Virus record (IMG/VR): IMGVR_UViG_3300028735_000004
Coordinates: 128,001 to 192,000 of that record
DNA length: 64,000 bases
Reading direction: 5' to 3' (one strand)
From: a virus
Taxonomy: Duplodnaviria > Caudoviricetes
The position numbers and the translations under genes are program-made. Of this stretch, positions 6,790 to 27,044 are shown piece by piece. The notes below the pieces were generated by a model. That model had not been told where the DNA came from. It saw nothing but the letters and a program-made list of their open reading frames with translations, and made no database searches. How positions within the stretch are numbered: position 1 is the stretch's first letter; each line of letters opens with the position of its first letter.

Positions 6790-6800
6790 TTATTTAAATA

Positions 6801-11147: not shown

Positions 11148-11158
11148 TCTTTTCTTCC

Positions 11159-11404: not shown

Positions 11405-11426
11405 AATTCTTTATATATCAAGCAAA

Positions 11427-11726
11427 TTATTGTTGTGCCCAAGCTTCAACAGAAACAACAGGATTAGTTCCAGATTTTACTCTAAACCATATTAAACATA
11501 TATTTCTATTTACAAAATTTAAAGTAGCTCTATTGGTACCATAATTTAATTCTCCGTGGACGGTTGTTCCATTGAAAGAATACTCTACAACTCCTGTGCC
11601 TTCAATATGAAAAACTGCTCCAGAAGTTTTAAAAGTAATAATCATATCCGGATTTGTACCAAATTGGGTGCTACTTACAGTTGTTTTTTGAAAAAAATTA
11701 AAATCTTGACCTTGGGTTTTAGCCAT
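11427..11726 (-). CDS. Small beta-rich hypothetical protein (possible virion protein)
   Basis: AGGAG RBS; beta-strand-rich sequence. Confidence 0.65.
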   Translation of the reverse strand: MAKTQGQDFNFFQKTTVSSTQFGTNPDMIITFKTSGAVFHIEGTGVVEYSFNGTTVHGELNYGTNRATLNFVNRNICLIWFRVKSGTNPVVSVEAWAQQ

Positions 11727-11755
11727 AATAATCTCCTAAATAATATTCCTAAATA

Positions 11756-12619: not shown

Positions 12620-12620
12620 T

Positions 12621-13475
12621 TTATTCTTTTAGTCTTTGCTCTATTTCATGTATAATAAACATAACATCATTTGTTAAATCTAATCCTATACGATAATCTT
12701 CTTTTCCATCTATTGCATCAAGGAAAACTTTAATAACATTAAATAATGGAGTTTGCTCATATTTATCTATAACGGGTAATCCATTAAATAATAATTTATT
12801 TTCAGATAAATCATCATAAATAAATGTATCTTTATGAGAAGATACAATAAATTTTCTCATTTTAGTAGGAAATCCATTTCCAAATCCAAGATCTGCTTTA
12901 AGCTCTCCTTTAATATTATCTTTTTCAATATTAAAAAATAAAGAAACATTGAAATTTTCAGCAATTTCTTCATTTAAACTTACTTGTTGTTTTTGAGCAG
13001 TGAACTTCTGTGGTCTACCTCTCATTATATCTAATGTCAAAGCAATATCGTGTGGACCATAATCGTATAATGAAGAGTAATTTCTTATAGGACCATTATT
13101 ATATCCGCAAGAATATAATGCTGTTATTGCGTTGTGATCGCAATTATTTTTTATAAACTGATAATAATCTGAAAATAAATGTATATGATTTACAATTATT
13201 GGTGATTTATATTTATTTAATAACTCTATATCTTCATAATTTAAAGATATAGGTTTTTCAATAATTACTGGTATATTTTTCTCTAAAGCCTCTATTGCAA
13301 TTTCAATATGACTTTCTGGAGGAGTGGAAATTATTATACCATCACATTTTTTATTAATTAAATCTTTCCAATCTTCTTTGCCAGCAACTAATAATTTACA
13401 ATTTTCAAAATTAGCAATTGTATTTATATAATTCCTTCCCCATTTGCCAGCACCGATTAATCCTAAAGTCTTCAT
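12621..13475 (-). CDS. Gfo/Idh/MocA family NAD(P)-dependent oxidoreductase
   Basis: GLIGAGKWG, STPPESH, EKP motifs. Confidence 0.88.
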   Translation of the reverse strand: MKTLGLIGAGKWGRNYINTIANFENCKLLVAGKEDWKDLINKKCDGIIISTPPESHIEIAIEALEKNIPVIIEKPISLNYEDIELLNKYKSPIIVNHIHLFSDYYQFIKNNCDHNAITALYSCGYNNGPIRNYSSLYDYGPHDIALTLDIMRGRPQKFTAQKQQVSLNEEIAENFNVSLFFNIEKDNIKGELKADLGFGNGFPTKMRKFIVSSHKDTFIYDDLSENKLLFNGLPVIDKYEQTPLFNVIKVFLDAIDGKEDYRIGLDLTNDVMFIIHEIEQRLKE

Positions 13476-14428
13476 TTTACATTATAAAACCAAGAATTAT
13501 TTTGATACCAATTAACACATTCTTTTAATCCTTTATCAAAACTAAATGTGGGTTGCCAACCTAATGATTTTATTTTTAAACAATCAACGGAATATCTAAA
13601 ATCATGTCCTGGCCTGTCTTTTACAAAAGATACTAAATCTTTTTTTACTTCAAGTATTTTAGAAATTTTCTCTACGATTTCCAAATTTGTAAATTCTATA
13701 CCTGAGCCTATATTATATACTTCATTTACATTACCTTTTTCCACTACTTTCATAATAGCAGAACAATGATCTTCAACATAAATCCATTCTCTTATTTGAG
13801 TTCCATTTCCGTGAATTGGAATTTTTTGATCATTTAATATACAAGTAATTACTTTAGGTATTAAATTTCTTGGAGGCTGACGCGGACCAAAGTTATTGCA
13901 GCATCTGGTAATGTTATATTTAAGCCCGTGAGTTTGGCTTGCAGCATGTACAATTAATTCACCGGCTGCTTTTGAAGCACTATACGGATTTCTTGGTTTA
14001 ACTACGGCTTCTTCAGTCCAAGATTTATCACCTAAACCAAGCTGACCATATACTTCATCAGTTGAAACATAAACGAATTTTTCTACTCCATATTTTACAG
14101 CCATATCGACCATAACTTGAGTTCCAACAACATTTGAATGTATAAATGGGCCCGCACTTCTAATACTATCATCTACGAAACTTTCTGCAGCTCCGTGAAT
14201 AATAATATCCGGACGTTCAACAGCGAAAACATTTTCCATAAATTGTTCATCAGCAATATCGCCCATATAAAAACTATGATCTTGATTTTCTTTTATATTA
14301 TAACGATTATATGAAGCAAGAACCTTATCAACACTAACAAATCTATAATTTAATTTTTCGCGCATCACTTTACGCATAAAATTTGAAAAAATAAAACCGG
14401 CAGAACCTGTTATCAATATTGTCTTCAT
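13472..14428 (-). CDS. rfbB: dTDP-glucose 4,6-dehydratase
   Basis: TGSAGFI, HGAAESFVD, STDEVYG, PYSASKA, NNFGPRQ, RPGHDFRY. Confidence 0.9.
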   Translation of the reverse strand: MKTILITGSAGFIFSNFMRKVMREKLNYRFVSVDKVLASYNRYNIKENQDHSFYMGDIADEQFMENVFAVERPDIIIHGAAESFVDDSIRSAGPFIHSNVVGTQVMVDMAVKYGVEKFVYVSTDEVYGQLGLGDKSWTEEAVVKPRNPYSASKAAGELIVHAASQTHGLKYNITRCCNNFGPRQPPRNLIPKVITCILNDQKIPIHGNGTQIREWIYVEDHCSAIMKVVEKGNVNEVYNIGSGIEFTNLEIVEKISKILEVKKDLVSFVKDRPGHDFRYSVDCLKIKSLGWQPTFSFDKGLKECVNWYQNNSWFYNVK

Positions 14429-14844
14429 ACTTCCTCTAATTTTAGAATTTTTTTAATTAAATCATCAGCCTTACCTTCTAAAACTGCAGATTTATCAAAA
14501 TGATAATTTGCTCCCTGAATCATCATATTAACATTATTTTGCTCTACATCTGAAAATGTAATAATCGGAATTTTTCTATTATTGGCCTGAATCCACATAA
14601 TTAAATCAGAACCATTACCTTCTGGCATATCGTGATCTAAAATAATTAGATCAATTTTACAATATGTAATAAGTGCAGATGCGGCAAGTGCGCCTGGAAC
14701 AACACTAAATTGAACTATTCCTTGGGGCTCAAATACTTGTAAAAAATGATTTAAAATACCTGATTGATTAGTTAAATCATCTTCACATATTAAAATATGT
14801 TTTTGTGGATATTTTAATCTATTAACATGTCTAAATTGAAACAT
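14425..14844 (-). CDS. Stand-alone response regulator receiver domain
   Basis: ILICEDD, LIILDHDMPEGNG (phospho-Asp), IITFS, FDK. Confidence 0.8.
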   Translation of the reverse strand: MFQFRHVNRLKYPQKHILICEDDLTNQSGILNHFLQVFEPQGIVQFSVVPGALAASALITYCKIDLIILDHDMPEGNGSDLIMWIQANNRKIPIITFSDVEQNNVNMMIQGANYHFDKSAVLEGKADDLIKKILKLEEV

Positions 14845-16064
14845 TATATTTCCTTATATTCTGGAAGCGGAATAATCCAAGTGCCTTTAAAATTAGAATT
14901 ATTTTTAATAATTGAGTCAGAAAAATTCCAAGCTCCAATAAAAATATAATCTACCGGATCTGTATTTATTTTATCTGGAGAAAATATTTGAATATGTTTT
15001 CCTGGCGAATATACATTTTGTTTATCATTAGATTGTTTTAATAATGCATCTTCAATTCCATATTTAATAATATTTTCATCTATATTAAATGTATAAGCAA
15101 GAGTTGTAAATTTTGCAGGTAATCCGTAAATCGCAATTGATTTTCCGGAATTATATATTTGCTGTAATCTACTGGAAATTTTATCTCTTAAGAAGAGAAC
15201 ATTATCACAAAATTGATCTATTTTGGTATTTATATTTTTTTCTAAATTTAAAATATCATATACTGACTGCTTAATTTCCCTTGTTCCAGCTTTACACATA
15301 TATGCCCTAAAGGAACCGCCGTGATTTGGTAATCTTTCTACATCAAAAATATCTAATTTAAATTTCTTAAAATATTTAACCAAAGGATCTATATGAAAAT
15401 GATGCATATGTTCGTGATACACCAAATCCAACAATCCTTTATCTAAAATATCTAATAGATAAGAATTTTCAATTATAAATACTCCATCATCAGATAATAA
15501 TTCTAAAACTCCTTCAACAATAGTATCTAAATCCTCATTATGTGCAAAGCAATTATTACAAGTTATGACTTTAGCTTTTCCATAATTATCAGATATATTT
15601 TTGGCTAAATCTTTATTAAAGAATTCTGGTATAGTAAATACGCCATCATCATTTGCTTGTTTAGCAATATTTTGTGCCGGATCTACCCCTATAACCTTAA
15701 TATTTTGATTTAAAAAGTTCTTAAGAAAACATCCATCGTTTGAAGCAATATCGCAAATAATATCTTTAGATGTTAAATTAAATTCATTTATTATTAAATC
15801 TGCATATGTTTTAAAATGTTCTACATTAACTTTGCTTGTGCTACTTACATAAAAGTAATTTCTATATAATCTTTCTTTACTTACTATACAATCTAATTGT
15901 ATATGATTACAAGATTGACATTGCATTAAATTTAATGGAAATAAATCTTGCTTATCTTTATTATAAATAAATTCATTGGCAAGTGGAGAATTAGCTAAAT
16001 GTAAAATTTCTTTTATACTTCCACCGCATAATAAACATTTATTTATAATTTTATAATCAGTCAT
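14844..16064 (-). CDS. NDP-hexose C-methyltransferase (TylCIII/TcaB9-like)
   Basis: N-terminal CxxC..CxxC Zn site, DIASNDG SAM motif, YHEH, HGGS, YGLPAK. Confidence 0.85.
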   Translation of the reverse strand: MTDYKIINKCLLCGGSIKEILHLANSPLANEFIYNKDKQDLFPLNLMQCQSCNHIQLDCIVSKERLYRNYFYVSSTSKVNVEHFKTYADLIINEFNLTSKDIICDIASNDGCFLKNFLNQNIKVIGVDPAQNIAKQANDDGVFTIPEFFNKDLAKNISDNYGKAKVITCNNCFAHNEDLDTIVEGVLELLSDDGVFIIENSYLLDILDKGLLDLVYHEHMHHFHIDPLVKYFKKFKLDIFDVERLPNHGGSFRAYMCKAGTREIKQSVYDILNLEKNINTKIDQFCDNVLFLRDKISSRLQQIYNSGKSIAIYGLPAKFTTLAYTFNIDENIIKYGIEDALLKQSNDKQNVYSPGKHIQIFSPDKINTDPVDYIFIGAWNFSDSIIKNNSNFKGTWIIPLPEYKEI

Positions 16065-16483
16065 TAAAAATTTACTCTCACTACTGAATTCTCATAATTT
16101 TCGTGATTTTTTTCAATTCCATTAATAGTAATAAATGTAGTATCTTCTAAAAATTCTAATTTATGAACAACATCTGGTTTAGAAAACACCATTTGTCCAG
16201 CAGTAAAAATTTTAGGCTCCTTAACATCTTTACCATCTAAACTTCTTTCATAATATTTTAAAGAGCCAGAAACAATATAACAAGCGTGCCAATCTTGTTT
16301 ATGATAATGATTTGCTCTAACGGATCCGGCTTTACTTGTAATTAAAGTAATACTACCAGATGGTCCGAGCCATAAATTTTGTATTGTTCCACGATCATCA
16401 ATAAAAGGTTTATCTAACGGAACTTCAACATTTTCTGGATATTCTGCATTATTAACTAACTCTACATATTTTTTATTATCCAT
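16064..16483 (-). CDS. Cupin sugar epimerase/ketoisomerase (RmlC/FdtA-like)
   Basis: DDRG, RANHYH..H motifs; operon context. Confidence 0.7.
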   Translation of the reverse strand: MDNKKYVELVNNAEYPENVEVPLDKPFIDDRGTIQNLWLGPSGSITLITSKAGSVRANHYHKQDWHACYIVSGSLKYYERSLDGKDVKEPKIFTAGQMVFSKPDVVHKLEFLEDTTFITINGIEKNHENYENSVVRVNF

Positions 16484-17621
16484 TTTTCTTACCTTTATAT
16501 TCTATAATTTTTTGCTCTAATTTAGAAACTGATTTTTCCCAGCTGTGCTCCAACGCAAATTTTCTACAACGATCTATAACATCATCTGCATATGCTTTAT
16601 CTGTTAGAGATTTTATTATTGAATTAGTATATTCTGGTAAATGGTCTTTGATTGGAGATGGGATTACAATACATCCGGAATCCTTATATATACTTCCTAA
16701 ACAATCTTTATCTGTAATTACTGGAACTGTATAACTTGCATGTGCTTCAAGAGTTGATACGGAAAAACCTTCAGAAAATGATACTGTATCACAAGTATAA
16801 CCAAATACACTGGCTTGACTAAATTCCTCGTTTATTTGTTGCCTACTAACAGAGCCTATATGTTCTACTCCAAAATCTTTTAATTTTTCTATTGCATTCT
16901 TAATATATCTTACTCTTTGACCCATTTCAACTATATGAAAATGATTATTTTTATCGTGAGGTTCGATATTAGGAATTGCTCCATAATTAAAATGATAAAA
17001 AATCTTTAAGGAAGCATAAGGAACTTCTTTTCTAATTTTTGGCCATTGAGATAATAACCAATGCAACCCACGATCTGCACTTGAGCACCAAATAACTCTT
17101 CCCGGAACTCTACGATCTTCATATACCTCTGGAGAGCATCCTAATGGCACCATATCCCATTTATCTGGTCTAATTGACCTTGCTTTTAAAATCTCCATAT
17201 GTTGATGACAAACACCTAAATATAAATCAACAAAGTCATCATAGTTAGGTCCGCAATAACTAAAGTCATTTAACATCTGCCAAACAATTCGTAATGGTTT
17301 GGTAGTAGAGTTAGATAAAAAACTAAAAACCTCCGGTTCATTTAATGAAATAACACAATCAAATGTATCATCGACAACATTTACAAGTTCATCAAAATTA
17401 TATAATTTTGCCCCGGCCCACATTTCCGGCTTATTATGAGGTTGAGCGTGAACCGTAAATAAATGAACTTCGTGTTGTTTTTTTGCAAATTCTTCTGCCA
17501 TTTTAACAAGACACAATTCAGTTCCAGTTAATCCTCTTGAACTAACCAAAATATTACTGTACCAAAAATCTAATGGACGAGAACCGATACTATATGGACC
17601 TAAAACAAGCGCTATTTTCAT
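16476..17621 (-). CDS. GT-B (GT4-like) glycosyltransferase
   Basis: GLTGTE, SSADRGL, SEGFSVSTLEA; start set at ATG 17621 (ATGA overlap). Confidence 0.8.
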   Translation of the reverse strand: MKIALVLGPYSIGSRPLDFWYSNILVSSRGLTGTELCLVKMAEEFAKKQHEVHLFTVHAQPHNKPEMWAGAKLYNFDELVNVVDDTFDCVISLNEPEVFSFLSNSTTKPLRIVWQMLNDFSYCGPNYDDFVDLYLGVCHQHMEILKARSIRPDKWDMVPLGCSPEVYEDRRVPGRVIWCSSADRGLHWLLSQWPKIRKEVPYASLKIFYHFNYGAIPNIEPHDKNNHFHIVEMGQRVRYIKNAIEKLKDFGVEHIGSVSRQQINEEFSQASVFGYTCDTVSFSEGFSVSTLEAHASYTVPVITDKDCLGSIYKDSGCIVIPSPIKDHLPEYTNSIIKSLTDKAYADDVIDRCRKFALEHSWEKSVSKLEQKIIEYKGKKNG

Positions 17622-18030
17622 CAAATACCCTTTGGTGTAATATATAACATCGTGCAAGGATGTCTTTCTATTTCTTCAAAATTACAATCAAAAGATGATG
17701 TAATTAATTGTTTTACTCTATTAGAAATTTGAGGATCTAAAAAGTTATGACATTCTATAATCATATTTGTTTTAAATTTACTAATAGATTTTAATCCGCC
17801 TATAATTGCTTTTTCTTCCGCGCCTTCAACATCGATTTTAATCCAATTAATTTTATTAATTTTATATGTATCAACAACATTATCTAATGTTATCATATCA
17901 TATACTTTAGTTATTGTTTGAGAAGGCCAATGTGGAGCATAACTACTCTATAAAAAGAATATTCTGGATGAGTAGTACCTTTGATTACTTTAAATTCTTT
18001 ATTTTTAAAAGTTTGATTTTTAATTTGCAT
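17621..18030 (-). pseudogene. FkbM-family methyltransferase with internal deletion/frameshift
   Basis: N-stub MQIKNQ...HPEYSFY from ATG 18030 joins out of frame near 17950 to SSYAPHWPS...TLD...IKIDVEGAE..IECH; no DIGA SAM motif remains. Confidence 0.75.
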
Positions 18031-19140
18031 TTAACACCAACCGTTTCCGTTTAAAATTTCAATATATTTATTTACATAAGATTTTGCCATCATTAATTTA
18101 TCAAATCTAATAACAGATTGATTTCTGCATTTTACCAAATCTATATAGTTAATTTTAGACAAAGCCTCTGAAAAATGTTTAATATTATTTTCACAAACAT
18201 ATCCGGTAATACCTTTATCAATTACTTCCGGCACCGATCCATAATTAGTGCCAATTACCGGAGTGCCGCAAGCCATCGCTTCAACTTGAGATAATCCAAA
18301 TGGTTCGTGAAATTGAACACTATATATAAGAGCCTTTGCTTTTCTATATAGATTTCTTTTAGCAATATGATGTTCAGGATCTTTTGGAAGCCACTCAAAA
18401 TGTATATTTGGTATATTTTTAGCATTATAAATCGCTTGTATAGCGCAATTTTTTTGATATTCAAATATTTCATCTTCCGGTCTGGTTCCCGCTATAACGA
18501 AATCATAATTTGGATTTGTTTTAGCCAAGTTAATCGCAAAATAATATCCTTTTGCTTCGTGCCATCGATTCATCCAAAGAAAAAAATTACTTTTTTCATA
18601 TGTTGGAGAATAATAATTAGTATCTATACCACCATAAACAACTTTTGCTTCTTTAACCTTATGCCCATTTGGTCCAGCTAAATCTGGAGTTGGAGTATTT
18701 TCATAATCAGTAGCTCCTCTTAAAACTCTATCTCTATGAGCATTTGACCAAACAATTAAATTATGGGGGCCGTAGTCATGCTTCCAACATCCACCCATTA
18801 AAGTAGAAATAACACTTGTTTTACCTAATTGAAATAAGTGTTCTGCAACCACTTTACATGTACTAAAATCGTGTATAATATCTAAATTTAATAAAATATT
18901 TTTATATTTATTTAAACAATCTAAAGCACAATCTACTGATGTTGGAGATGATTTTCCATATGTTGCCATAGTTGGATGTAAAATAGTTTTTTCAGGAGGA
19001 ACTGTTCCATCTGGAGCGAATAAATGAATTTCATGTCCTAAATCAATTAAAGATGATATTAAATCTAATATTACAACATCACCAGTATGTGTATGGTATG
19101 GTATTGGAAATGACAATGTTGAAACAATTCCTATTCTCAC
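18031..19140 (-). CDS. GT4 glycosyltransferase
   Basis: EPFGLSQVEAMACGTPVIGTNYGSVPEVI. Confidence 0.9.
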   Translation of the reverse strand: MRIGIVSTLSFPIPYHTHTGDVVILDLISSLIDLGHEIHLFAPDGTVPPEKTILHPTMATYGKSSPTSVDCALDCLNKYKNILLNLDIIHDFSTCKVVAEHLFQLGKTSVISTLMGGCWKHDYGPHNLIVWSNAHRDRVLRGATDYENTPTPDLAGPNGHKVKEAKVVYGGIDTNYYSPTYEKSNFFLWMNRWHEAKGYYFAINLAKTNPNYDFVIAGTRPEDEIFEYQKNCAIQAIYNAKNIPNIHFEWLPKDPEHHIAKRNLYRKAKALIYSVQFHEPFGLSQVEAMACGTPVIGTNYGSVPEVIDKGITGYVCENNIKHFSEALSKINYIDLVKCRNQSVIRFDKLMMAKSYVNKYIEILNGNGWC

Positions 19141-19865
19141 TTCACTGCCTCAACTATAAAACTATGTGATAAACCAGTATCAACTGCCTCTTCAGCTAAA
19201 ATTGGATTTACACTTTTATGGGGCTCATAATAAAAATAAACATCTTTAAAACCAGAGTTTAATAAACAATTTCTTATAGAAAATTTATTAAATATAAACA
19301 TATGACCTTCATAATTATTAAATGTGCAATTAGGTCCAGATGCACCAAACATTAGAAAACATAATTTTGAACCAGGATCTGCTAATTTATAAAATTCGGG
19401 TTGTTCAGGAGCAAATTTATCCATATCATTATTAAAATAAGCATTTAATAATAAATCTAAATCTGGAGTAGTAATTCTAATAACTCCACCTGGTTTTAAA
19501 ACTCTAAAGCATTCATTTAATACTTTAGGAACTTGATAAATTATATTTAAATGTTCTATAATTTGACCAAGATAAATAATATCTACGCTATTGTCTTGAT
19601 GTTGAGGTAATCCAGACATTATATCGTGCTTAATTATATTAGCGGAACCTCCATTAATAAAATAATTAACAACATTTCTTTGTTCCTTTGTCATATTATT
19701 AAATACATTTATATAATAAGGATTTGGCGGGTTAGATGTTAATCCTTCAACAACCAATTTAATATAGTAAAAATATTCATTTTGCTCATCGTGATCGTAA
19801 TTAGTCCATCCAGGATATGGGAAAATATTAGGACCGCACCCTATATTTAATTTAACTAAACTCAT
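19137..19865 (-). CDS. Class I SAM-dependent methyltransferase (Methyltransf_11-like)
   Basis: LNIGCG, IIEHL, RVLKPGGVIRITTPD. Confidence 0.85.
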   Translation of the reverse strand: MSLVKLNIGCGPNIFPYPGWTNYDHDEQNEYFYYIKLVVEGLTSNPPNPYYINVFNNMTKEQRNVVNYFINGGSANIIKHDIMSGLPQHQDNSVDIIYLGQIIEHLNIIYQVPKVLNECFRVLKPGGVIRITTPDLDLLLNAYFNNDMDKFAPEQPEFYKLADPGSKLCFLMFGASGPNCTFNNYEGHMFIFNKFSIRNCLLNSGFKDVYFYYEPHKSVNPILAEEAVDTGLSHSFIVEAVK

Positions 19866-20788
19866 ATTTGACTCTTATAATAATTAATAACTTCTTTAAT
19901 TGATTTTGATTTTAAATTATCTAAATTAGCATACAATTGATCTACCCAAATATAAAACTCATCAGCATTTCTATCTAATTTTGCTTTATTACAAATATTG
20001 CAGCACGGAACTATATTTTCAATACTATGAGTACCATCATTATTTAATCTATCGAGCCCATTGTATTTATATGTATATAGATTATTATTTAATCTATTTT
20101 TATAATAATTAATTGCCGTATTAGACTTTTCTTCACCACAATAAAAACACTTTAATTGACTAATTTTTAGAAAATTATTAAAACTTATATCTTTATATAA
20201 CCTCTGCCAGACTCCTTTAGCGGCAGATAATTGATATTTATTAAAAACAATATCAGATTTATTTTCTATATTTTTAGAATTATTATTAAATTTAACTTTA
20301 TAAATCCAATTTATAAAGTCTTCATAAGATTTATTTAATTTTGCAGAATTACAATAACGACAACACGGAATTATATTATCTATAGTATGTCCTAAGTTAT
20401 TATTGACTCTATCTAAACCATTATAAATAAATTCTCCATTTATTTTTGCATCAGTGCTATTGTTATTAGCATAATATATGTGGCAATTCAATTTATTTAA
20501 TGGTTTAGATTTACAGTAATGACAATCCATTTGAGAATATTTTATAAAAACATTAAAATCACAATCCTTATATGTAGACCTCCAAGCTGCTTTTGCAGAA
20601 GTTTCCTTTGGATTATATTTTTGTTTTAAGCATCCACAAGATTTAATTTTATTAGCAATTAAATGATCGTATCTTATTGATTTTAATTTTCCGCATATGC
20701 ATTGACACAAATAATATTTTTTATAATTAGATATTTTATCTAATTTTAATATAGTTAAATTACCTATACTTTTATTAATCAAACTCAT
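19862..20788 (-). CDS. HNH homing endonuclease with duplicated HNH domain
   Basis: Two CxYC...NGLDRxNN..H...N..PCC..CN.AK domains; N-terminal CxCxCG..SCGC. Confidence 0.85.
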   Translation of the reverse strand: MSLINKSIGNLTILKLDKISNYKKYYLCQCICGKLKSIRYDHLIANKIKSCGCLKQKYNPKETSAKAAWRSTYKDCDFNVFIKYSQMDCHYCKSKPLNKLNCHIYYANNNSTDAKINGEFIYNGLDRVNNNLGHTIDNIIPCCRYCNSAKLNKSYEDFINWIYKVKFNNNSKNIENKSDIVFNKYQLSAAKGVWQRLYKDISFNNFLKISQLKCFYCGEEKSNTAINYYKNRLNNNLYTYKYNGLDRLNNDGTHSIENIVPCCNICNKAKLDRNADEFYIWVDQLYANLDNLKSKSIKEVINYYKSQI

Positions 20789-23700
20789 CGATAACTTTCT
20801 GTAGGGTAATATGGGTTAAGTGGATTAATTTTTTTAATTTCTAACAATTGACGAAACATTTGAGACCATTCATTAGCTAAATCATCTAAACCAAAATGAG
20901 ATATTGCATATTGTTGTGATCTTATTCTATCACTATCATCATCATCAGTTAATGCTTTAACTGCTGCTTCAATAAAGGCATTTTTATAACTTTCACTTGT
21001 CCAATCTCCAGGTATCAAAACACCTCTATCACCAACTGTCTCATTAATTGCAGCAATTGAACTTCCAACAAATCGCAAACCTGCTGCTTGAGCTTCCATA
21101 CCACCTATATAACTCGTTTCTGAAAACCAAGTTGGATATAATATAACTCCAGATGATAAAAATTCATCTGCAAGTTGTTTTTGATTTACACGATCGTGAT
21201 AAACAACTCCTTGATTTTGTAATTCAAATATTTTATTTTTTAAATATTGAATTAAATTTTTATGCTCTGGATTAAATTGTGCCGAATATTCCCAATTTTT
21301 AAATCCATAAAACAAATGTAATTCTGCTTCTGGAACGCGCTCTTTTATTTTCGGCCAAATATCTAATAATACCGGCCAAGAACGATCTGGACTGCTGGAG
21401 TTAATTGCTTTAAATTTATTTCTTGGAAGTTTCTTATTAAATCTATTTAAATCAATACCATTTCTTGATACAATAATATGATCTGGATGAACATTATGAA
21501 CATTAATTAGATTTTGTTTATGCCAGTGAGATAGTGCTATAATACGATCTGCTTTTAACAATAATTCATTATTTGCATTTAAAGCAAATACATCGTGAAC
21601 CCAAAGTAATTTTAATTTAGCAGAAATATTATATCGATCTTCAAGCATATTAGCTTGTCTTGAAATAATTAATACATCGCATTCTAAATCTTGAAATTTA
21701 TTAGACTGATAATATTCAACTCCATCATAAATTCCTTCGCCGTGTTCTCCGCAGCTATTATAAAGTCTAACTCTGTGGCCACTTAATGCCAATCTTTTAG
21801 CCATTTCAAGAGCCATTAATTCACTACCACCAATACCAGTATTTCTAACAGTTAATGGGCTCCAAGTTTCCACGCCGTCTCCGCAATAAATAATAATATC
21901 TAATTTATTATTATTTGATGGTGATTGTAAATATCCTTCGGCCAAAATATTACCTTGATTTTCTACATCTTTGGCACCACTTGCTAAAGAAACAAAACTA
22001 TCTTTAACCCAGAATCCGGCTTTTCGCAAATTATCAGCTACCGTCCAAACAGTTGGCGCAACAATACGACTCTTTAAATGAGGAGTTAACCAATTTTTAC
22101 CTTCTTTTTCTAAATTCCAAGGATCGGCGAATTCAACATATTGACCTCGCATCCAAGCCCCATAAGGAGTGCATAATAAAATTTTACCATTAGATTTTAG
22201 CATTTTAGCAGCCGGAACTAACATATCATTAACCGGATCTATTAAATGCTCATATGTATCAGAACTTAAAACATAATCAAATTTATCTTGTATTTTTTGT
22301 TCCATATCTTTAAATAAAGAACATACATAAGTTGCATTTGTATTAAATTCTTCGGCTTTTCTTTTAGCAAGATCAATAGATGTTTGTATTGCATCGACAC
22401 CGACTACTTTATGTCCTAATAAACCGTATCTATTAGTGAAACTACCGTCCATACATCCAAGATCTAATATAAAACTATTTGGCTCTAATCTTGACGCCAT
22501 TATATGAAATCTTTGTCCTTCTTGAGTATCTAAACTTAAAGGAAATGGTAATAAAATTCCAGATTCTACATTTGGATTAATAGGTGTGTTTAAGGAGATA
22601 AATTTATCTTTATCATTATTCCAATCAAGATATTTTTTTGTCATTGATAATGCTTTTATTGTTTCAGCAGTATGTCTAACATAATATGGAGCATTTTCTA
22701 AAAACGAAATAGCAGATAATACCTCATCATTAACTATATATTGCTTCCAAATCATAAGTACAACGGCCTGCAATTGCTCTTTACTTAATTTTAATGGATA
22801 ACTTGAAAAATCATAAACATTAGGTATTTTCCAATCAAATTCAGATTTTCCAACTTTAGCAACTGGAAATTTATTTTCAAAAACAACACCTTCTTCTGGT
22901 AAAGGTTGATTATTAATAGCGGCTAAAATAACATTAATATTTTCTTTATTAATGGTATTATTGCTAACTAATGTATTTAGATTTTTAACAATTTCTTGAC
23001 GAGCCAAAAAATCTTCATAGATTTTTTTATTAGTTAAAAAATAAGGATCTTCTGGTTGAGCCTTCATACCAGTTAAAACACTTTCTAATGCGCCTTTAAC
23101 ATCACCTATTTTATTTAAAGCTAAATTTAAATATTTATGAATTTCGGCATCACGCTCAATTGGATTAATAAATAATAATGTTTTAGTTGGTGGTAATTTT
23201 AATCCAGTTTGAGCAAAATAAGCGCATCGTTCCCAGTTTCTTTGCTCATCATTACCGCCATTTAATGCAAGAAAATAAAAAGCTTTAGCAAGAGCAAAAT
23301 ATCCCTCTGCCCAATTTTCTTTAATTTCAATTGCTTTAAATCCCCATTTAATACATTCGTTATATTTTTTTAAATCAAAATAAATATCAACAAGTTTCAG
23401 ACAAGCCATAACGCGCTCATCTTCCCATCCAGAAACTTCTATATATTTTGTTAAATGTTCGATAGATTCATCAATCATTCCAACATTAGCATATTCTAAA
23501 CCCAAATAATATCTTTGTCTTGCATCAGTATCACCAATTTTTTCAAAATAGGCTTTTAAAATTCGTAAGTTTCTTCCAGATTCAAATGTTTTAGTGCTGT
23601 ATTGACGCTGATGTTTAAATACTAATTCTTCTCGTGGCACTAATGAAATTCTTTTATTATTGTCAGGAACTGCTACTTCGTGAACTGGATTGGTCCATTT

Positions 23701-24156
23701 AAATAAATTTTTATCTGAAAATAATCTTTCTCTGTAATGTTTGCAGGTGCATTGTCCTGCCGCATTATATGAATACTCATACGGAAATAAAAATGCAATT
23801 CCATCTAATTGAAAAACATCTTTATTTTTTTCATATTCTTCAACTATATTTTTTAATTTATCCATACCGTCAATAATATCATCACCATCTAACCACATTA
23901 CCCAAGATTTAGTGGCTAAATCAAATGATCTTTGACGAGCTTGAGAAAAATTTTCAATTAATCCTGTTTCTGGATTATTACAATCAGTATATACTTCAAA
24001 AATATCTGCATATTTTTTAGCTACTTCTTGCGTTCCATCCGTAGACCCGGTATCAACAATAACGATCTCTTCAACATAATCTCTAATTGATTTTAGACAT
24101 TTTTCTAAAAGTGGTTCATTTTTAACAATAATACAAGCTGATACTGGTGCTTTCAT
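20785..24156 (-). CDS. Multidomain GT2 - TPR - SAM methyltransferase - GT4 protein
   Basis: SACIIVKNE/DTGSTDGT/WLDGDD; TPR helices (YYLGLEY, EGYFALAK); ILDLGCMDG; GIGGSE/SSSPDR/ETSYIGGMEAQ. Confidence 0.88.
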   Translation of the reverse strand: MKAPVSACIIVKNEPLLEKCLKSIRDYVEEIVIVDTGSTDGTQEVAKKYADIFEVYTDCNNPETGLIENFSQARQRSFDLATKSWVMWLDGDDIIDGMDKLKNIVEEYEKNKDVFQLDGIAFLFPYEYSYNAAGQCTCKHYRERLFSDKNLFKWTNPVHEVAVPDNNKRISLVPREELVFKHQRQYSTKTFESGRNLRILKAYFEKIGDTDARQRYYLGLEYANVGMIDESIEHLTKYIEVSGWEDERVMACLKLVDIYFDLKKYNECIKWGFKAIEIKENWAEGYFALAKAFYFLALNGGNDEQRNWERCAYFAQTGLKLPPTKTLLFINPIERDAEIHKYLNLALNKIGDVKGALESVLTGMKAQPEDPYFLTNKKIYEDFLARQEIVKNLNTLVSNNTINKENINVILAAINNQPLPEEGVVFENKFPVAKVGKSEFDWKIPNVYDFSSYPLKLSKEQLQAVVLMIWKQYIVNDEVLSAISFLENAPYYVRHTAETIKALSMTKKYLDWNNDKDKFISLNTPINPNVESGILLPFPLSLDTQEGQRFHIMASRLEPNSFILDLGCMDGSFTNRYGLLGHKVVGVDAIQTSIDLAKRKAEEFNTNATYVCSLFKDMEQKIQDKFDYVLSSDTYEHLIDPVNDMLVPAAKMLKSNGKILLCTPYGAWMRGQYVEFADPWNLEKEGKNWLTPHLKSRIVAPTVWTVADNLRKAGFWVKDSFVSLASGAKDVENQGNILAEGYLQSPSNNNKLDIIIYCGDGVETWSPLTVRNTGIGGSELMALEMAKRLALSGHRVRLYNSCGEHGEGIYDGVEYYQSNKFQDLECDVLIISRQANMLEDRYNISAKLKLLWVHDVFALNANNELLLKADRIIALSHWHKQNLINVHNVHPDHIIVSRNGIDLNRFNKKLPRNKFKAINSSSPDRSWPVLLDIWPKIKERVPEAELHLFYGFKNWEYSAQFNPEHKNLIQYLKNKIFELQNQGVVYHDRVNQKQLADEFLSSGVILYPTWFSETSYIGGMEAQAAGLRFVGSSIAAINETVGDRGVLIPGDWTSESYKNAFIEAAVKALTDDDDSDRIRSQQYAISHFGLDDLANEWSQMFRQLLEIKKINPLNPYYPTESYR

Positions 24157-24225
24157 TCTTTAATTCCAATATGTTAAAATCTAACTTGTATATAACAAAA
24201 ACAATTTAGGTAAATTATTTTAATT

Positions 24226-26445
24226 TTAACCAATTAATTTCATATAGAAATAAGTGCCAGTTGGAGAGTAAGCAATGCCAGAACCGCCGCCGCCTTTAAT
24301 TTGTCCAGTAATACCAGGAATATCCAAGAAACGAGTGTAAGTTTCGATGCTGGTACCAGATGGAATATAAACAAGATAGTTTTGTGAAGCGCTTACATTT
24401 CTGGCACCAGTTGCAGCTGATAAATTAACATAAGTTACTGACTGATCAATAGGTGTTCCGCTACCATAACCACGCCTATCGTTTCCTCCAGTTGCACCAA
24501 GGAATTGTTGAATTTCAATGTTTACACCAGATGGTAATCCAGTGAAATTAATTTTTGTGCTAACTTCATAATAACCAGATTTATTAACTTGAATCCAGCC
24601 AGCAGCAGTTCCAACGCTTGTGGCAGATAAAGCGCCTGAACTATAAATTATTCCGTTATTCCATTTTATCATACCGCCAGAAGCACCGCCGGAAATAATG
24701 TTGGCACCAGTGATACCTACTTTAATAAAATGATTAAAATTATTAATGTTAACTGAATTTCCAGGACCAGTTGTGCCTTCTAACGCTCCATTTAAATTAA
24801 TAGTATTAAATGGTCCGAGTGTAAGTCCGTTATTTTGAATCCAAATAGTGCTGGCTCCGTTAACTCCAGCAGGCCCGATACTTCCGGTTGGTCCTACGGT
24901 TCCAGTTGGTCCGGCAGGTCCAGTTGGTCCGGCAGGTCCGGTTGGTCCGGCAGGTCCGGTTGGTCCAGGAGCACCGTTTGGAGCTTCATTCCAATATAAA
25001 TTACCGCTTCCATCAGTTAATAATACTGATCCAGATGCGCCGATATTTCCTGGTAAGCGTAAAGTAAATGATGCGACAGATGATCCTACTTGTAGATACA
25101 TCATACCGCTACCACGCACGGATCTTAATGCTACATATGGTCCGGCATCAACTGGATCTCTTCCGATTTCTGAAATAAATGTTGCAACGCCAGATGCGCT
25201 ATTAAAGAACTGTACTGATCCATAAAGATTTGCCGTTCCTGCTGGAGCTGGAATAGATAAAATAATATCTCCAGGTTGTCTATTATTACCAGTAGCACTT
25301 GCATTTGGTTCTTGGCTTTTAATTTCAATATTCCAGGTTTGAGCGTTTGATTGTACTGCTGATTTTGTAATTAAGAAGTGATTAGATGATACTATACCAT
25401 CGCCCTCACCTAATAATAAAGTATTATTTCCTGGATTTAATTTAATGCTTGCACCGTTATCAATACTTAATACTGTTGAATTAACGTCTTGTACAGCGAA
25501 GTGCCCTCCGAACTCTACCCAGGTTCCAGAAGTATTCGTATTTCCAAGTTTAATAACATCTATTGTAGATTGACGGCCATAACTTAACATTGGCCAAGGA
25601 TTTCCGCTATTATTCAAATAAGTAATAAATGGATATAAAACTTCCTGTTCAGGTCTTGGTAGTCTAATAAATCCAGATGGGGCGGCAGATGCTACGGTAT
25701 TATAGAATACAAGTCCTGCTGAAGGAACTGTAATAGCTCCACTTAATCCACCAAGATTGCTTATTCTTGGAGTCGTAGCGGTTGAGTTTGATCCTTGAAA
25801 ATCTCCATTTAATGCAATTAAGCCTGGAGTTGCGGAAGATGCGAAAGTTGCACCGCCGCCGACGACGCCGGGGCCGGGTGGACCTTGTGGTCCTGTAGCT
25901 CCTTGTGGTCCTGTGGCTCCTGTAACTCCTGGAGATCCCTGGGCTCCTTGAGGACCAGTAACTCCTTGTGGACCTTGAGGACCTGTAGCTCCTGTAACTC
26001 CTGGAGATCCCTGGGCTCCTTGAGGACCTGTAGCTCCTTGTGGACCCTGAGGACCAGTAGCTCCTGTAACTCCCGGAGATCCTTGAACTCCTTGAGGACC
26101 TTGTGGTCCTGTAGCTCCTGTAACTCCTGGGCTACCTTGAATTCCCTGTGGACCCTGAGGGCCAGTAGCTCCTGGAGATCCTTGAGGACCCACACTACCA
26201 GTTGGTCCCGGTGGTCCTCCAGCGGGTCCGGTTGGTCCCATAGGACCAGTTGGACCTACTCCACCAATAATATAAATATCAGCAATTGGACCTGTAGCAG
26301 ATCCGGTAACTCCAGGACCGTGAAAATTTAATCCTGTAAAATATCCTAAATCATAACCATCATTAGAAACAGAAATACCAGATCCTATCACACTACCGGA
26401 ACCTGTCATTACCCCTTTTATTTGTGATGGATTTATTTTACTCAT
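24226..26445 (-). CDS. Collagen-like fibre protein with Thr-rich GXT repeats and C-terminal beta domain
   Basis: Two Gly-X-Y tracts; C-terminal [11 protein letters not shown] resembles C1q/BclA-type domains. Confidence 0.85.
24875..24975. repeat. 18-bp tandem repeat encoding GPTGPA
   Basis: ccggcaggtcc(a/g)gttggt units. Confidence 0.85.
25870..26270. repeat. Imperfect tandem collagen repeat ([18 protein letters not shown] units)
   Basis: Repeated gctcctgtaactcctggagatccctgggctccttgaggacc blocks. Confidence 0.85.
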
Positions 26446-27044
26446 TAGTTTTTAATATAATAATCAGCAGTTATTACATCTACGGGTGATGGTGTTGTTG
26501 ATGGAGGTGTTACCATAATAATTCCAGTATATCCAGTGCCGGGACCTCCGCCCTCAAAAATAAAATAATCATCTAAAAACATTTGCTTTACACCGTTTTT
26601 ATAAACAATTATTTTATGATCAGCATCTTGAACGAAAGTGCCAAAAGGAATTGTAAAAATATTATTTACACCATCTACAACTCCAACCAATTGAACATCT
26701 TCTTTTTTAATATACGATAATTGAGAAGTAGAAACAGTTGTGCCAAAATCAACACCACATGCTTTTAAAAAAGCTTTTTGGTCCTCATTAAATTGTAATA
26801 AATTAATATCACTAAAAACTATAGTAATTTCATTTGCTAATAATTTATTTAAAAGCTCTCCTTTTAATAAAGAAGCTCTTATATCTGATTCACTAACACC
26901 AGGAATTGCCAATAAATCTCTTTCCTTACCAACAGGAATTGGATAATTGAAAATTTTAATTTCTTTATTTGAATTAGAAATAATATTTTTAACTACAAAA
27001 GATGTATTTCTTTTTTGGAAAGGAGCAAATCCATTCATACCCAT
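26445..27044 (-). CDS. Putative structural/fibre-associated protein
   Basis: TAATG-coupled to the collagen gene; [19 protein letters not shown]...DY motif typical of virion appendage domains. Confidence 0.5.

Follow-up and report, generated by a model that had tools for sequence, protein, structure and literature searches.

The window analysed here, a 64,000-nucleotide stretch, comes from an uncultured 244-kb phage of a microbial mat that belongs to a jumbo-phage clade. In this clade a variable block runs from the major head protein gene through homing endonucleases, two conserved genes (o154 and o199), the fibre gene or genes and, where present, a sugar operon, to a patatin gene. The features in the window are as follows.

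31199..32209, minus strand: major head protein, opening the variable block (phrog_2522, E 1.6e-80)
30526-31110: homing endonuclease, paralogue of 19862-20788
27351..27815, minus strand: o154, conserved protein (traced by tblastn synteny)
26445..27044, minus strand: o199, conserved protein; its stop overlaps the collagen start (junction -1 nt)
24226..26445, minus strand: collagen-like fibre protein, 739 aa (Pfam Collagen, E 3.7e-21)
20785..24156, minus strand: four-domain fusion GT2-TPR-methyltransferase-GT4, 1123 aa (Pfam and PDB sequence search)
19862..20788, minus strand: HNH homing endonuclease (phrog_1035/2118, E 6.4e-23 and 4.3e-11)
19137..19865, minus strand: class I SAM methyltransferase (Pfam Methyltransf_11, E 9.2e-9)
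18031..19140, minus strand: GT4b glycosyltransferase (Pfam Glycos_transf_1, E 1e-22; E-x7-E at 279-287)
17621..17974, minus strand: FkbM-type methyltransferase remnant (Pfam Methyltransf_21, positions 100-171 of 173, E 2.5e-13)
16476..17657, minus strand: GT4c glycosyltransferase (Pfam Glyco_trans_1_4, E 6.1e-8; E-x7-E at 296-304)
16064..16483, minus strand: cupin, 139 aa (Pfam Polysacc_synt_C / Cupin_2, weak)
14844..16064, minus strand: NDP-hexose 3-C-methyltransferase, TylC3/TcaB9/MtmC type (PF08421, E 2.2e-12; PF08484, E 9.3e-27)
14425..14844, minus strand: stand-alone response-regulator receiver (Pfam Response_reg, E 1e-11)
13472..14428, minus strand: dTDP-glucose 4,6-dehydratase, RmlB-like (TIGR01181, E 6.2e-109)
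12621..13475, minus strand: Gfo/Idh/MocA NAD(P)-dependent oxidoreductase (Pfam GFO_IDH_MocA, E 5.3e-12)
11756..12619, minus strand: patatin-like phospholipase (Pfam Patatin, E 1.8e-24)

The operon consists of 10 minus-strand genes whose junctions measure -8 to +1 nt, the exceptions being the 69-nt gap from the end of the collagen gene to the fusion gene and the 134 nt between GT4 and the FkbM remnant. A preliminary description had placed the collagen gene 70 bp upstream of a tightly coupled operon, and the junctions confirm this. Every gene that it named is present on the minus strand where it had been placed, and the Pfam profile searches returned the same glycosyltransferase, methyltransferase and sugar-enzyme families; the HNH endonuclease and the receiver gene, however, had been overlooked. 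No membrane segment was found in any operon protein, all of which are predicted to be soluble, and the operon encodes no flippase, lipid-carrier transferase or ligase. The collagen gene lies about 5 kb downstream of the head protein gene, and the operon about 7 kb from it.

The genes on either side are shared with relatives of a different fibre type. In the clade o154, which has no match in Pfam or PHROG, always stands 5' of o199 and the fibre genes, be the fibre collagen or non-collagen (tblastn synteny in L002, L003, L036, L037, L043, L057, L064, L067, L086, L094, L105 and L113). The o199 gene is likewise kept 5' of both fibre types; its Atlas leads are weak (DUF4183, the T7 tail-fibre N-terminus, every one below 0.85), and it is part of the fibre module, perhaps as an anchor or assembly factor, with no specific tie to glycosylation. 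The patatin-like gene flanks the glycosylation module and is outside it, as it is also found beside the head genes in L035, L038, L090 and L094, all of them without collagen and operon.

The fibre protein starts with an N-terminal part (residues 1-58), continues with Gly-X-Y runs at 61-78 and 80-193, a non-collagen middle domain (~197-485) and a second Gly-X-Y run (491-532), and ends in a C1q/TNF-like jelly-roll head (533-739). An AF2 model of the head (528-739; pLDDT 72, pTM 0.67) matched TNF-family ligands in Foldseek (E ~1e-6, TM by target 0.65-0.75) as well as viral C1q-domain and collagen-like proteins. Domains of the C1q/TNF-like type are common to many viral fibre and collagen-like proteins. 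Because of this head and the position of the gene in the structural block, we propose that the product is a virion component, for which attachment to the head or to the tail would both be possible. At the Y position, the main run of 38 triplets has 17 Gln, 13 Thr and 6 Pro, and the 14-triplet run has 5 Thr and 4 Ala. The gene had been characterized as a Thr-rich GXT collagen; it is a collagen by Pfam, but it is rich in both Thr and Gln and not simply GXT. Gln exceeds Thr in the main run, which counts against the fibre glycosylation proposed below.

The fusion opens with a GT2 (GT-A) domain (~3-205; Pfam GT2 E 2.5e-17) carrying D90-x-D92-D93, which is followed by a TPR region (~205-430; a weak Pfam TPR match, and a consensus TPR in the PDB at 1.6e-5), a SAM methyltransferase domain (~545-690; Pfam E 2.5e-11) and a GT4 domain (Glyco_trans_1_4, ~750-1123) with an E-x7-E motif at 1013-1021. 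The invariant residues were confirmed across 12 homologues, and at least 721 homologues at E <= 1e-10 were found among the 8,000 candidates scored. In the PDB sequence search the GT2 domain best matched GmaR (E 1.5e-18, residues 3-201) and then SunS (5.5e-8); ThuS, a peptide glycosyltransferase like SunS, is related to it as well. From this domain content we propose that the fusion is an initiating protein O-glycosyltransferase that would also transfer a second sugar and carry out O-methylation.

Several of the genes that follow vary among relatives. The HNH endonuclease at 19862-20788 is an insertion in the operon with no pathway role, and it is missing from this position in L002, L003 and L029-L033. 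The SAM methyltransferase at 19137-19865, probably responsible for sugar O-methylation, is accessory, with homologues in L002, L003 and L033 and none in L029-L031, and GT4b is accessory by its distribution across relatives. The FkbM gene had been called broken, and rightly so: the C-terminal ~115 residues are left, the SAM-binding N-terminal half is gone, and in tblastn the remnant matches residues 478-592 alone of a 593-aa GT4-FkbM ORF in L002. Relatives have full-length versions, among them an intact 225-aa gene in L033. The receiver, with an apparently intact acidic pocket (E21-D22-D23), D70, T/S and K, is an accessory gene with homologues in L001/L007 and L002/L005 only. GT4c is a core gene, kept in L001-L006, L029-L034 and L060.

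The sugar-pathway genes are core genes as well. The C-methyltransferase matches MtmC (4rv9, 1.9e-66), TcaB9 (3.4e-54) and 5t64 (4.5e-51) over its full length, and has a Cys4 zinc site formed by CxxC motifs (C10, C13, C49, C52). MtmC and TcaB9, its nearest homologues of solved structure, are enzymes of antibiotic-sugar pathways; 5t64, deposited under the title 'Sugar 3-C-methyl transferase', we take to be KijD1. The RmlB-like protein, with intact T-D-E and Y149-x3-K153 motifs, scores 364.0 bits against TIGR01181, about 1 bit short of the 365.1 cut-off, versus only 97.7 bits against the CDP-type model. The cupin, a proposed NDP-4-keto-sugar epimerase or isomerase, has a weak PDB match to the CapF cupin domain (E 0.014), and the Gfo/Idh/MocA protein, a proposed ketoreductase that would finish the sugar, matches 3c1a (E 6.5e-20); both are present in every operon examined, the latter as the last gene of the module. 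The matches behind these two assignments are weak or generic. As had been stated before, the operon has no RmlA, and PF00483 was not found in five related phage records, including a 472,749-bp record rated 100% complete.

How far the collagen gene and the operon travel together was followed through relatives of the head protein in IMG/VR (n=292), 80 of which, at 75-83% identity, were kept. In the window, L001/L007, L002/L005, L003, L029, L030, L031, L032, L033, L116, L196 and the P0127 contig, the collagen gene is the immediate upstream neighbour of the fusion, is found within 3.2 kb of it, or is set apart from it by nothing but a homing endonuclease; the G+C contents are 29-47% and the fusion identities 47-66%, where measured. 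In L035, L038 and L090, whose head protein is ~80% identical, the head gene block is followed immediately by patatin, and other relatives with ~80% head identity have o154-o199 and non-collagen Thr/Ala-rich proteins, with the operon absent; in L094 this layout is covered by sequence through to patatin. The near-complete genomes G003, G011 and G014 have no collagen and no C-methyltransferase. The two states are scattered over the head-protein tree, where branches with strong support require a minimum of three changes. Collagen and operon have been gained or lost jointly across the jumbo-phage clade at least three times, and, since the two are physically linked, this could reflect the exchange of one variable DNA block instead of a common function.

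The collagen-glycosyltransferase synteny seen at this locus is kept in many relatives, but it has exceptions. In L004, L006 and L034, three phages at a greater distance, no collagen gene adjoins the operon, the adjacency being absent in L006 and L034 (G+C 62-67%) and loose in L004; L004 and L006 have giant collagen genes elsewhere in the genome. The complete genome G012 contains a single collagen ORF, of 246 aa, and lacks the operon, and the collagen gene of P0143, on an 8.6-kb contig, has no GT cluster within 4.4 kb downstream. Immediately upstream of its fusion gene, L004 encodes Ser/Thr/Asp repeat proteins. In MW202524, an unrelated 42.5-kb podovirus, a GT2-TPR-GT4 homologue lies 580 nt past the major capsid gene, in a cluster that encloses a 599-aa Ser/Thr/Gly-rich repeat protein. 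These two cases suggest that the partners are, again, extended repeat proteins.

A similar pairing is found in bacteria. Around the best 80 bacterial GT2-TPR loci a collagen-like ORF lies within 8 kb in 20 and is directly adjacent in 13, and most of these collagen neighbours have Thr at Y. The pairs span Cyanobacteria, Actinomycetota, Acidobacteriota and Chloroflexota, and Pfam confirmed Collagen beside GT2+TPR proteins of 366-383 aa.

We consider it probable, judging from gene content and gene neighbourhood, that the locus encodes a protein O-glycosylation system that works in the cytoplasm and modifies the collagen-like fibre of the phage itself. A collagen gene beside soluble rare-sugar enzymes that resemble the enzymes glycosylating spore collagens points to a fibre that is most probably sugar-coated. 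Since RmlA was not found, as shown for the relatives, the pathway would start from host dTDP-glucose, which the RmlB-like dehydratase, active as its family suggests, would convert to dTDP-4-keto-6-deoxyglucose. The TylC3/MtmC-type enzyme would then methylate C-3 with SAM as the donor, the cupin would epimerise or isomerise, and the Gfo/Idh/MocA protein would reduce the keto group, giving a dTDP-3-C-methyl-6-deoxyhexose by a presumed order of steps and with a presumed stereochemistry. The TPR of the fusion may grip the unfolded or folding collagen chain while the GT2 module attaches the initial sugar to a Thr, or a Ser, of Gly-X-Thr, in the manner of SgtA with BclA3 and of GmaR with flagellin. 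A short oligosaccharide that includes the branched sugar would next be built by GT4c, the accessory GT4b and the GT4 portion of the fusion, and it would be O-methylated by the fusion's own methyltransferase domain together with the SAM methyltransferase at 19137-19865. The glycosylated fibre, in which the middle domain separates a collagen stalk from a further collagen stretch and a trimeric C1q/TNF-like head closes the chain, would then enter virion assembly. The core of the preliminary description, a methyl-branched sugar made from host dTDP-glucose and laid on the fibre, gains from the enzyme families, their solubility, the lack of RmlA, the joint presence and absence and the bacterial pairs; the glycan, its linkage and its acceptor residues we infer. 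The purpose put forward there, shielding or receptor mimicry, gains no support from these results. Such a coat might stabilize a triple helix free of hydroxyproline, confer protease resistance and alter the adhesion of the fibre.

The operon could instead modify a host protein or surface in infection (flagellin, pilin, S-layer or a host collagen-like protein), so as to block superinfection or alter host behaviour, with the fibre gene a mere co-tenant of a hypervariable region. Among solved relatives the closest is GmaR, whose substrate is flagellin, and the target could by this token be a host protein; the block between head gene and patatin is prone to swaps and rich in homing endonucleases, and reviews interpret jumbo-phage sugar clusters as modifying host polysaccharides (PMC7824862 section 3.4.10; PMC7029224). 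We nevertheless think host modification unlikely: the operon is accompanied by collagen even in L004 and L006, in which they are not neighbours, it is missing where the fibre module is non-collagen, and its bacterial GT2-TPR homologues adjoin collagen genes in four phyla. A route to cell-surface polysaccharide is also unlikely because such a route would need membrane, lipid-carrier, flippase or ligase components, none of which is present.

A role in glycosylating further virion proteins (the major head protein or decoration proteins, for example), either in place of the fibre or alongside it, would suit the ~7 kb between operon and head gene, the place of the MW202524 homologue so close to a capsid gene, and the glycosylated capsid and tail-tube subunits of mycobacteriophages (as cited in PMC12619734). 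It is quite unlikely, however, as relatives with a ~80% identical head protein do without the operon, which the head protein therefore does not need, and the repeat proteins of MW202524 and L004 favour extended repeat partners. The kinship with MtmC and TcaB9, known from antibiotic sugars, could hint at a glycosylated small molecule. Hypermodification of phage DNA bases would fit the DNA methyltransferase genes 1.4-4 kb upstream, and hydroxymethylated bases are frequent targets of phage glycosyltransferases (bioRxiv 10.1101/2023.12.21.572611). Both are very improbable: no hydroxymethylase, TET-like or aglycone-synthesis gene lies in or next to the operon, the initiating enzyme falls in the protein- or peptide-directed GT2-TPR group, and the operon co-varies with collagen genes.

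Glycosylation of the collagen-like fibre, which we propose, has its nearest parallel in Clostridioides difficile, where SgtA adds beta-O-GlcNAc to Thr in the collagen repeats of BclA3 and sgtA adjoins bclA3 (PMC7157674). Compared by domain layout rather than alignment, both enzymes are soluble and begin with a GT-A/GT2 domain, behind which come the TPR repeats; in both cases the enzyme gene adjoins a gene for a collagen-like protein with a globular terminal head, and the acceptor proposed for the phage is the same Thr of Gly-X-Thr. SgtA, on the other hand, is a stand-alone protein of 358 aa in a spore coat setting, whereas in the phage a methyltransferase and a GT4 are joined to the enzyme, which heads a 10-gene operon and sits in a structural module with the collagen gene first.

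Bacillus BclA, an exosporium glycoprotein that is served by rhamnose, anthrose or cereose genes, shares with the phage fibre a collagen stalk with a trimeric C1q/TNF-like head, methyltransferases and several glycosyltransferases, and, as predicted for the phage, a glycan capped by a rare modified 6-deoxysugar. Cereose was reportedly identified in 2017 by Li et al. as a 3-C-methyl-6-deoxyhexose. The collagen region of BclA carries short O-glycans that end in anthrose or cereose (PMC12357932, PMC10050317), and cereose and cillose are CDP-linked (PMC7725333), in contrast to the dTDP-based phage pathway (TIGR01181). The phage fibre also differs in having no exosporium-targeting N-terminus and in its mixture of Gln and Thr at Y, which is mostly Thr in BclA.

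The Listeria monocytogenes flagellin O-GlcNAc transferase GmaR (PDB 22ao), whose TPR has been proposed to recognize the substrate (PMC9638930), has a GT domain followed by TPR like the fusion, and a filament protein is glycosylated in the cytoplasm ahead of assembly. It differs in its C-terminal anti-repressor domain, its flagellin acceptor, its single GlcNAc and the lack of a dedicated sugar pathway.

Among viruses, mycobacteriophage glycosyltransferases decorate the phages' own structural proteins (Freeman et al. 2023, as cited in PMC12619734); the citing passage names capsid and tail-tube subunits, at their C-termini, as acceptors and mentions no collagen-like acceptor or nucleotide-sugar pathway. 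Giant viruses come closer in encoding collagen-like proteins, their glycosylating enzyme (Mimivirus L230) and gene clusters for fibril glycans (PMC9614988), with rare-sugar pathways coating the surface fibrils. L230, however, hydroxylates Lys and adds glucose to the hydroxylysine, an animal-type chemistry carried out by unrelated enzymes in a eukaryotic host, whereas the phage linkage is predicted to be on Thr and to be made by a GT2-TPR enzyme.

Every gene that the preliminary description had listed for the sugar operon and the collagen-like gene beside it was found in the window. The tight coupling it had reported was also borne out: from the fusion gene through the Gfo/Idh/MocA gene the junctions measure -8 to +1 nt, the sole exception being a 134-nt gap before the FkbM remnant. 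The FkbM gene is indeed broken, with the last ~115 residues of the domain surviving, and relatives carry either the full gene or a GT4-FkbM fusion. Two genes had been overlooked, an HNH homing endonuclease and an open reading frame for a receiver domain. The features discussed in this work are:

11756-12619, minus strand: patatin-like phospholipase
12621-13475, minus strand: Gfo/Idh/MocA protein, last gene of the operon
14425-14844, minus strand: stand-alone CheY-like receiver, inside the operon
16476-17657, minus strand: glycosyltransferase GT4c, a core operon gene
18031-19140, minus strand: glycosyltransferase GT4b, accessory
19862-20788, minus strand: HNH homing endonuclease inside the operon, paralogue of 30526-31110
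20785-24156, minus strand: 1123-aa fusion, first gene of the operon
24226-26445, minus strand: collagen-like protein, 739 aa
26445-27044, minus strand: o199, conserved gene preceding the fibre genes
27351-27815, minus strand: o154, conserved gene preceding the fibre genes
28415-30529, minus strand: 704-aa protein combining an endonuclease (phrog_4645) with a LAGLIDADG-like part and a tail resembling a DNA methyltransferase
30526-31110, minus strand: HNH gene, paralogue of 19862-20788
31199-32209: major head protein

The record that holds the window is 243,941 bp long and comes from an uncultured phage of low G+C content (about 29%), which carries genes for a portal, a large terminase, a prohead-protease fusion and the major head protein. 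No close phage relative was found when 10.8 kb of the head module was compared by megablast with 50,697 phage records, and no cultured relative when the terminase was compared by tblastn with the same collection, the best matches being Bacillus phages at about 24% identity. The full-length stretch is present in one sequencing run only, a microbial-mat metagenome, and hot-spring and mat samples gave partial matches. A tRNA scan of the window found none. In this AT-rich DNA the promoter-like sites are near the shuffled level (136 against 110.9 ± 10.3 in shuffled sequence), and the same scan found no terminator between the collagen and fusion genes. Homing endonucleases are concentrated in the stretch from the head protein gene to the sugar operon; the HNH gene within the operon is absent in relatives, and the same block in the relatives L033 and L196 (L-numbers denote collected phage or bacterial loci) has HNH, LAGLIDADG or GIY-YIG genes in different positions. 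At the far end, the patatin-like phospholipase is a fixed neighbour of the head/fibre block throughout the clade, with or without the operon. It was considered as a member of the glycosylation module and rejected, because the relatives that lack the operon retain it. The receiver, whose acidic pocket (E21-D22-D23), D70, T/S and K are apparently intact, was seen only in the window phage, L001/L007 and L002/L005; a phospho-regulated glycosylation step has no obvious explanation.

Within the structural block, the collagen-like gene follows the head protein gene at a distance of about 5 kb and is separated by 69 nt from the fusion gene; its product may be placed on the virion as a fibre. For o199, the Atlas leads were DUF4183 and a T7 tail-fibre N-terminus, all under 0.85. 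The collagen-like protein has 58 Gly-X-Y triplets in three runs, with Thr (20) and Gln (17) at the Y position. The label of a GXT-type collagen that it had been given holds in part: Thr is frequent at Y, but in the main run of 38 triplets Gln exceeds Thr (17 against 13, with 6 Pro). In the second run Y is Thr five times and Ala four times, and in the collagens of the relatives Thr is the commonest Y residue. No second collagen-like ORF was found within the window. An AlphaFold2 monomer model of residues 528-739, built from 22 homologues gathered by an exhaustive search, reached a pLDDT of 72 and a pTM of 0.67. In Foldseek this head matched PDB structures of TNF-family jelly rolls (E ~1e-6, TM by target 0.65-0.75). 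Numerous viral proteins labelled "C1q domain" or "collagen-like" were matched as well, among them proteins of giant viruses and an L-shaped tail fibre of a phage. Because of these matches, the predicted plan of the fibre is a stalk, a middle domain, a short second stalk and a C1q/TNF-like head, which would be expected to trimerise.

The fusion joins a GT2 domain, TPR repeats, a class-I SAM methyltransferase and a GT4 domain. Its GT2 part (Pfam Glycos_transf_2, E 2.5e-17) finds its best solved relative in GmaR, the Listeria flagellin O-GlcNAc transferase (E 1.5e-18), followed by the peptide S-glycosyltransferases SunS and ThuS; all three are GT-A enzymes with proteins or peptides as their direct acceptors. 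The residues D90, D92 and D93 of the DXD motif are invariant among 12 homologues. After the GT domain come TPR_11 at 257-294 (E 7.5e-4) and TPR_1, each below the Pfam cut-offs, a match of residues 211-295 to the consensus TPR protein 8bu0 (E 1.6e-5) and a MamA-type TPR at 189-292. The fusion family is large: of the 8,000 candidates scored, 721 proteins have E <= 1e-10, and many of these come from contigs of 200-480 kb. Several homologues (P0096, P0102, P0105 and P0122) are about 300 aa longer and appear to contain inteins, as they have Hint/intein and LAGLIDADG Pfam domains. Inteins usually reside in conserved, important proteins. A predicted complex of fusion residues 1-440 (GT2-TPR) with collagen residues 40-200 scored 0.00, which is neither support nor counter-evidence. 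GmaR, too, carries TPR repeats after its GT domain (PMC9638930). In SgtA of C. difficile, an enzyme of 358 aa, a GT-A domain (1-260) is followed by TPR_11-type repeats (262-358); the enzyme adds beta-O-GlcNAc in vitro to Thr of the BclA3 collagen repeats, and its gene abuts bclA3 (PMC7157674).

The remaining enzymes point to a branched deoxysugar. The C-methyltransferase aligns end to end with MtmC (4rv9), TcaB9 (3ndi) and 5t64 (E 1e-51 to 1e-66), has the three-part architecture of the TylC3/TcaB9/MtmC type (PF08421, Methyltransf_23/12, PF08484) and keeps the zinc cysteines Cys10, 13, 49 and 52. The entry 5t64, which we take to be KijD1, is deposited as a sugar 3-C-methyl transferase. The RmlB-like dehydratase scores 364.0 bits on TIGR01181, whose curated cut-off is 365.1, and far lower, 97.7 bits, on the CDP-type model; its catalytic T-D-E and YxxxK are present. 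The cupin weakly resembles the CapF cupin domain. The Gfo/Idh/MocA protein gave a generic match, and the final keto-reduction can be assigned to it by elimination. The three GT4 units of the operon keep their E-x7-E motifs. The reported lack of RmlA was upheld beyond the window, since none of five related phage records contains PF00483, including one of 472,749 bp that is rated complete; without nucleotidyltransferases of this type, the starting nucleotide sugar would have to be host-derived.

The adjacency of collagen and glycosyltransferase genes, from which the preliminary description had reasoned, proved to be repeated but not universal. A GT2-TPR gene stands beside a collagen gene in at least 12 phage contigs and 13 bacterial loci. 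Among the phages, the collagen gene is directly upstream of the fusion, at most 3.2 kb away, or parted from it only by a homing endonuclease. This holds in the window and in L001/L007, L002/L005, L003, L029, L030, L031, L032, L033, L116, L196 and the contig of the homologous protein P0127. Where measured, the G+C content of the paired loci is 29-47% and the fusion identity 47-66%. The core kept everywhere consists of the fusion, GT4c, cupin, C-methyltransferase, dehydratase and Gfo/Idh/MocA genes; the MTase/GT4b/FkbM cassette, the receiver domain and the methyltransferase insert of the fusion are accessory. The exceptions are L004, L006 and L034. In L004, whose genome is 241 kb, the fusion homologue is directly preceded by two genes (6761-9943; P0002 and P0003) for Ser/Asp/Thr-rich repeat proteins with repeats of about 15 residues (Ser/Asp/Thr/Val, 'SDxxxVTD'). 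Farther upstream on that strand, about 12 kb from the fusion homologue and ~2 kb beyond the two genes, is a 3965-residue open frame with collagen repeats. The nearest collagen gene of L006 (G+C 67%) is about 12 kb from the operon, and L034 (G+C 62%) has none within 10 kb. On an 8.6-kb contig, a related collagen gene is followed by 4.4 kb that contain no GT cluster.

A different arrangement is seen in the unrelated podovirus L115 (MW202524.1; 42.5 kb, Manatee Spring). Within 1656-11978 it has a GT2-TPR-GT4 homologue 580 nt after the major capsid gene and, behind it, two more glycosyltransferases, a Ser/Thr/Gly/Asn repeat protein of 599 aa, two methyltransferases and a gene like that of hyaluronan synthase. 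The cluster is possibly a second, independent virion-glycosylation cassette. Judging from the collagen neighbours and this 599-aa protein, enzymes of the GT2-TPR family recurrently pair with an extended repeat protein, in most cases a Thr-rich collagen.

Closer to the window phage, 80 loci were kept around head-protein genes 75-83% identical to its own (of 292 relatives). The block from the head gene to the patatin gene occurs in three states: o154-o199 followed by collagen gene(s) and the sugar operon; o154-o199 followed by non-collagen Thr/Ala/Ser-rich proteins without the operon, readable through to the patatin gene in L094; and a block with neither fibre module nor operon (L035, L038, L090). 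In L036, L043, L057, L064, L067, L094, L105 and L113 the o199 homologue is followed by a conserved ~500-aa Thr-rich protein without collagen, whose common N-terminus reads roughly '...NALDQALDIAGSL...', with more Thr/Ala/Ser-rich proteins behind; these make up the alternative fibre cassette of the non-collagen relatives. The N-terminus of the collagen-like protein has no similarity to these ~500-aa proteins, and no shared attachment domain was found between them. As this N-terminus is unlike theirs, and Collagen is the only Pfam family in the protein, we read it as working like BclA rather than as a member of the BclA family.

The two modules come and go together. Searches of whole phage records found neither collagen repeats nor the C-methyltransferase in G011 (95% complete), G014 (100%), G003 (97%) and G016 (76%), and found both, about 8 kb apart on one strand, in G015 (100%, terminal repeats). 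The sole mismatch is G012 (100%), where a single collagen ORF of 246 aa occurs without the operon. In a maximum-likelihood phylogeny of the head protein the states with and without the pair are interspersed, and well-supported branches force at least three changes. Such co-variation is expected of a functional couple and, because the genes are neighbours, equally of block exchange.

Owing to this ambiguity the search was extended outside phages. A profile of the first 430 residues of the fusion found 526 relatives among one genome per prokaryotic species. In the best 80 of these loci, a collagen-like ORF lies within 8 kb in 20 and directly abuts the GT gene in 13. The loci with a collagen-like ORF come from Amycolatopsis isolates, Actinokineospora terrae DSM 44260, Pseudonocardiaceae, Mycobacteriales, Pyrinomonadaceae (Acidobacteriota), Chloroflexota and a cyanobacterial MAG. 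In most of the bacterial collagens the Y position is occupied most often by Thr. Pfam recognised Collagen repeats in seven of the bacterial neighbours, and GT2 with TPR in two transferases of 366-383 aa.

Several of these loci are laid out as compact two-gene units, a collagen-repeat gene and then a GT2+TPR enzyme of 366-383 aa: L131 (5962-9101), L163 (5968-~9030) and L125 (6001-9101), the collagen protein of the last also bearing EF-hand motifs. The same unit is found in L123, L124, L135, L144 and L151; cultured Amycolatopsis sp. and Actinokineospora terrae DSM 44260 are among its carriers, as are MAGs of Cyanobacteria, Acidobacteriota and Chloroflexota. Two of the top hits, L116 (CAZGHY010000001.1, Gammaproteobacteria MAG, also with a 1061-aa collagen gene) and L117 (DATBQC010000343.1, Methylobacter MAG), encode fusion homologues 52-54% identical to that of the window; both have the appearance of phage contigs placed in bacterial bins, and the binning might be a hint to the host.

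Enzyme families, intact motifs, solubility, gene order, a conserved core and co-variation with collagen can all be read at the sequence level, and on this comparative genomic footing the interpretation that the operon would glycosylate the fibre is well supported. Sugar clusters in large phages are usually read as modifying the host (PMC7824862, PMC7029224). That this operon acts on a host protein or the host surface is unlikely in our view, and stays in play mainly because GmaR acts on flagellin. A lipid-carrier route to a surface polysaccharide finds evidence against it in the operon itself, since all its proteins are without a membrane segment: no 19-residue segment of the glycosyltransferases or sugar enzymes has TM-like hydrophobicity, and 11159-27815 holds no TM segment and no Pfam family of a phosphoglycosyl transferase, flippase/ABC transporter or polymerase/ligase. 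That the system glycosylates other virion proteins we hold to be quite improbable, and DNA hypermodification or a small-molecule product very improbable indeed.

If the operon does glycosylate the fibre, host dTDP-glucose would be the starting substrate, to be processed by dehydration, 3-C-methylation, epimerisation and reduction in that order. The GT2-TPR part would start the chain on Thr, the GT4 units would extend it and the methyltransferases would cap it; any benefit of glycosylating the fibre is something we infer. Work on Riftia cuticle collagen reportedly found that glycosylated Thr at Y stabilises hydroxyproline-free triple helices, and one may speculate that such stabilisation would suit a phage from microbial mats and hot springs. 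Mimicry of a host spore nap was also considered and dropped, the source being a microbial mat. The fullest form of the proposal is possible rather than probable when all its parts are taken jointly. It holds that a large, world-wide clade of 200-480-kb phages has autonomous collagen O-glycosylation, in which GT2-TPR loads the Thr of Gly-X-Thr, a virus-made 3-C-methyl-6-deoxyhexose forms the cap, the glycan replaces hydroxyproline as helix stabiliser and the virion is glycan-coated and 'hairy', the same collagen-plus-transferase unit being widespread and unstudied in Actinomycetota, Cyanobacteria, Acidobacteriota and Chloroflexota.

The literature searched held no published description of a phage-encoded collagen glycosylation system or of a phage 3-C-methyl-sugar pathway. 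Were the proposal true, a phage would make a rare branched sugar and glycosylate its own collagen-like surface fibres without membrane machinery, and tailed phages would share an ability thought special to giant viruses and spore-forming bacteria. A new reading would follow for the many "auxiliary" sugar clusters of huge phages, to which a role in modifying the host surface is usually attributed. The proposal would also supply a compact set of soluble enzymes for the glycosylation of collagen-like peptides and the synthesis of dTDP-3-C-methyl-6-deoxyhexoses, and a minimal collagen-plus-transferase pair testable in cultured actinomycetes (Amycolatopsis, Actinokineospora terrae DSM 44260). Glycan coats on fibres would bear on adsorption, on stability in hot or protease-rich mats and on immune recognition of therapeutic phages.

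Among known systems, SgtA has the same GT-A-then-TPR plan as the N-terminal part of the phage fusion, a likeness of published architecture and not of alignment, and resembles the 366-383-aa bacterial GT2+TPR transferases in size and plan. The collagen-stalk-plus-head plan of the phage fibre protein is that of BclA, C1q and many viral fibres. The known analogues of the proposed collagen glycosylation are SgtA-BclA3 and the BclA glycans (PMC7157674, PMC12357932, PMC10050317), GmaR (PMC9638930), mycobacteriophage virion glycosylation (as cited in PMC12619734) and Mimivirus L230 with the fibril glycan clusters (PMC9614988); a glycan-coated phage virion would be the bacterial-virus counterpart of the Mimivirus fibril layer.
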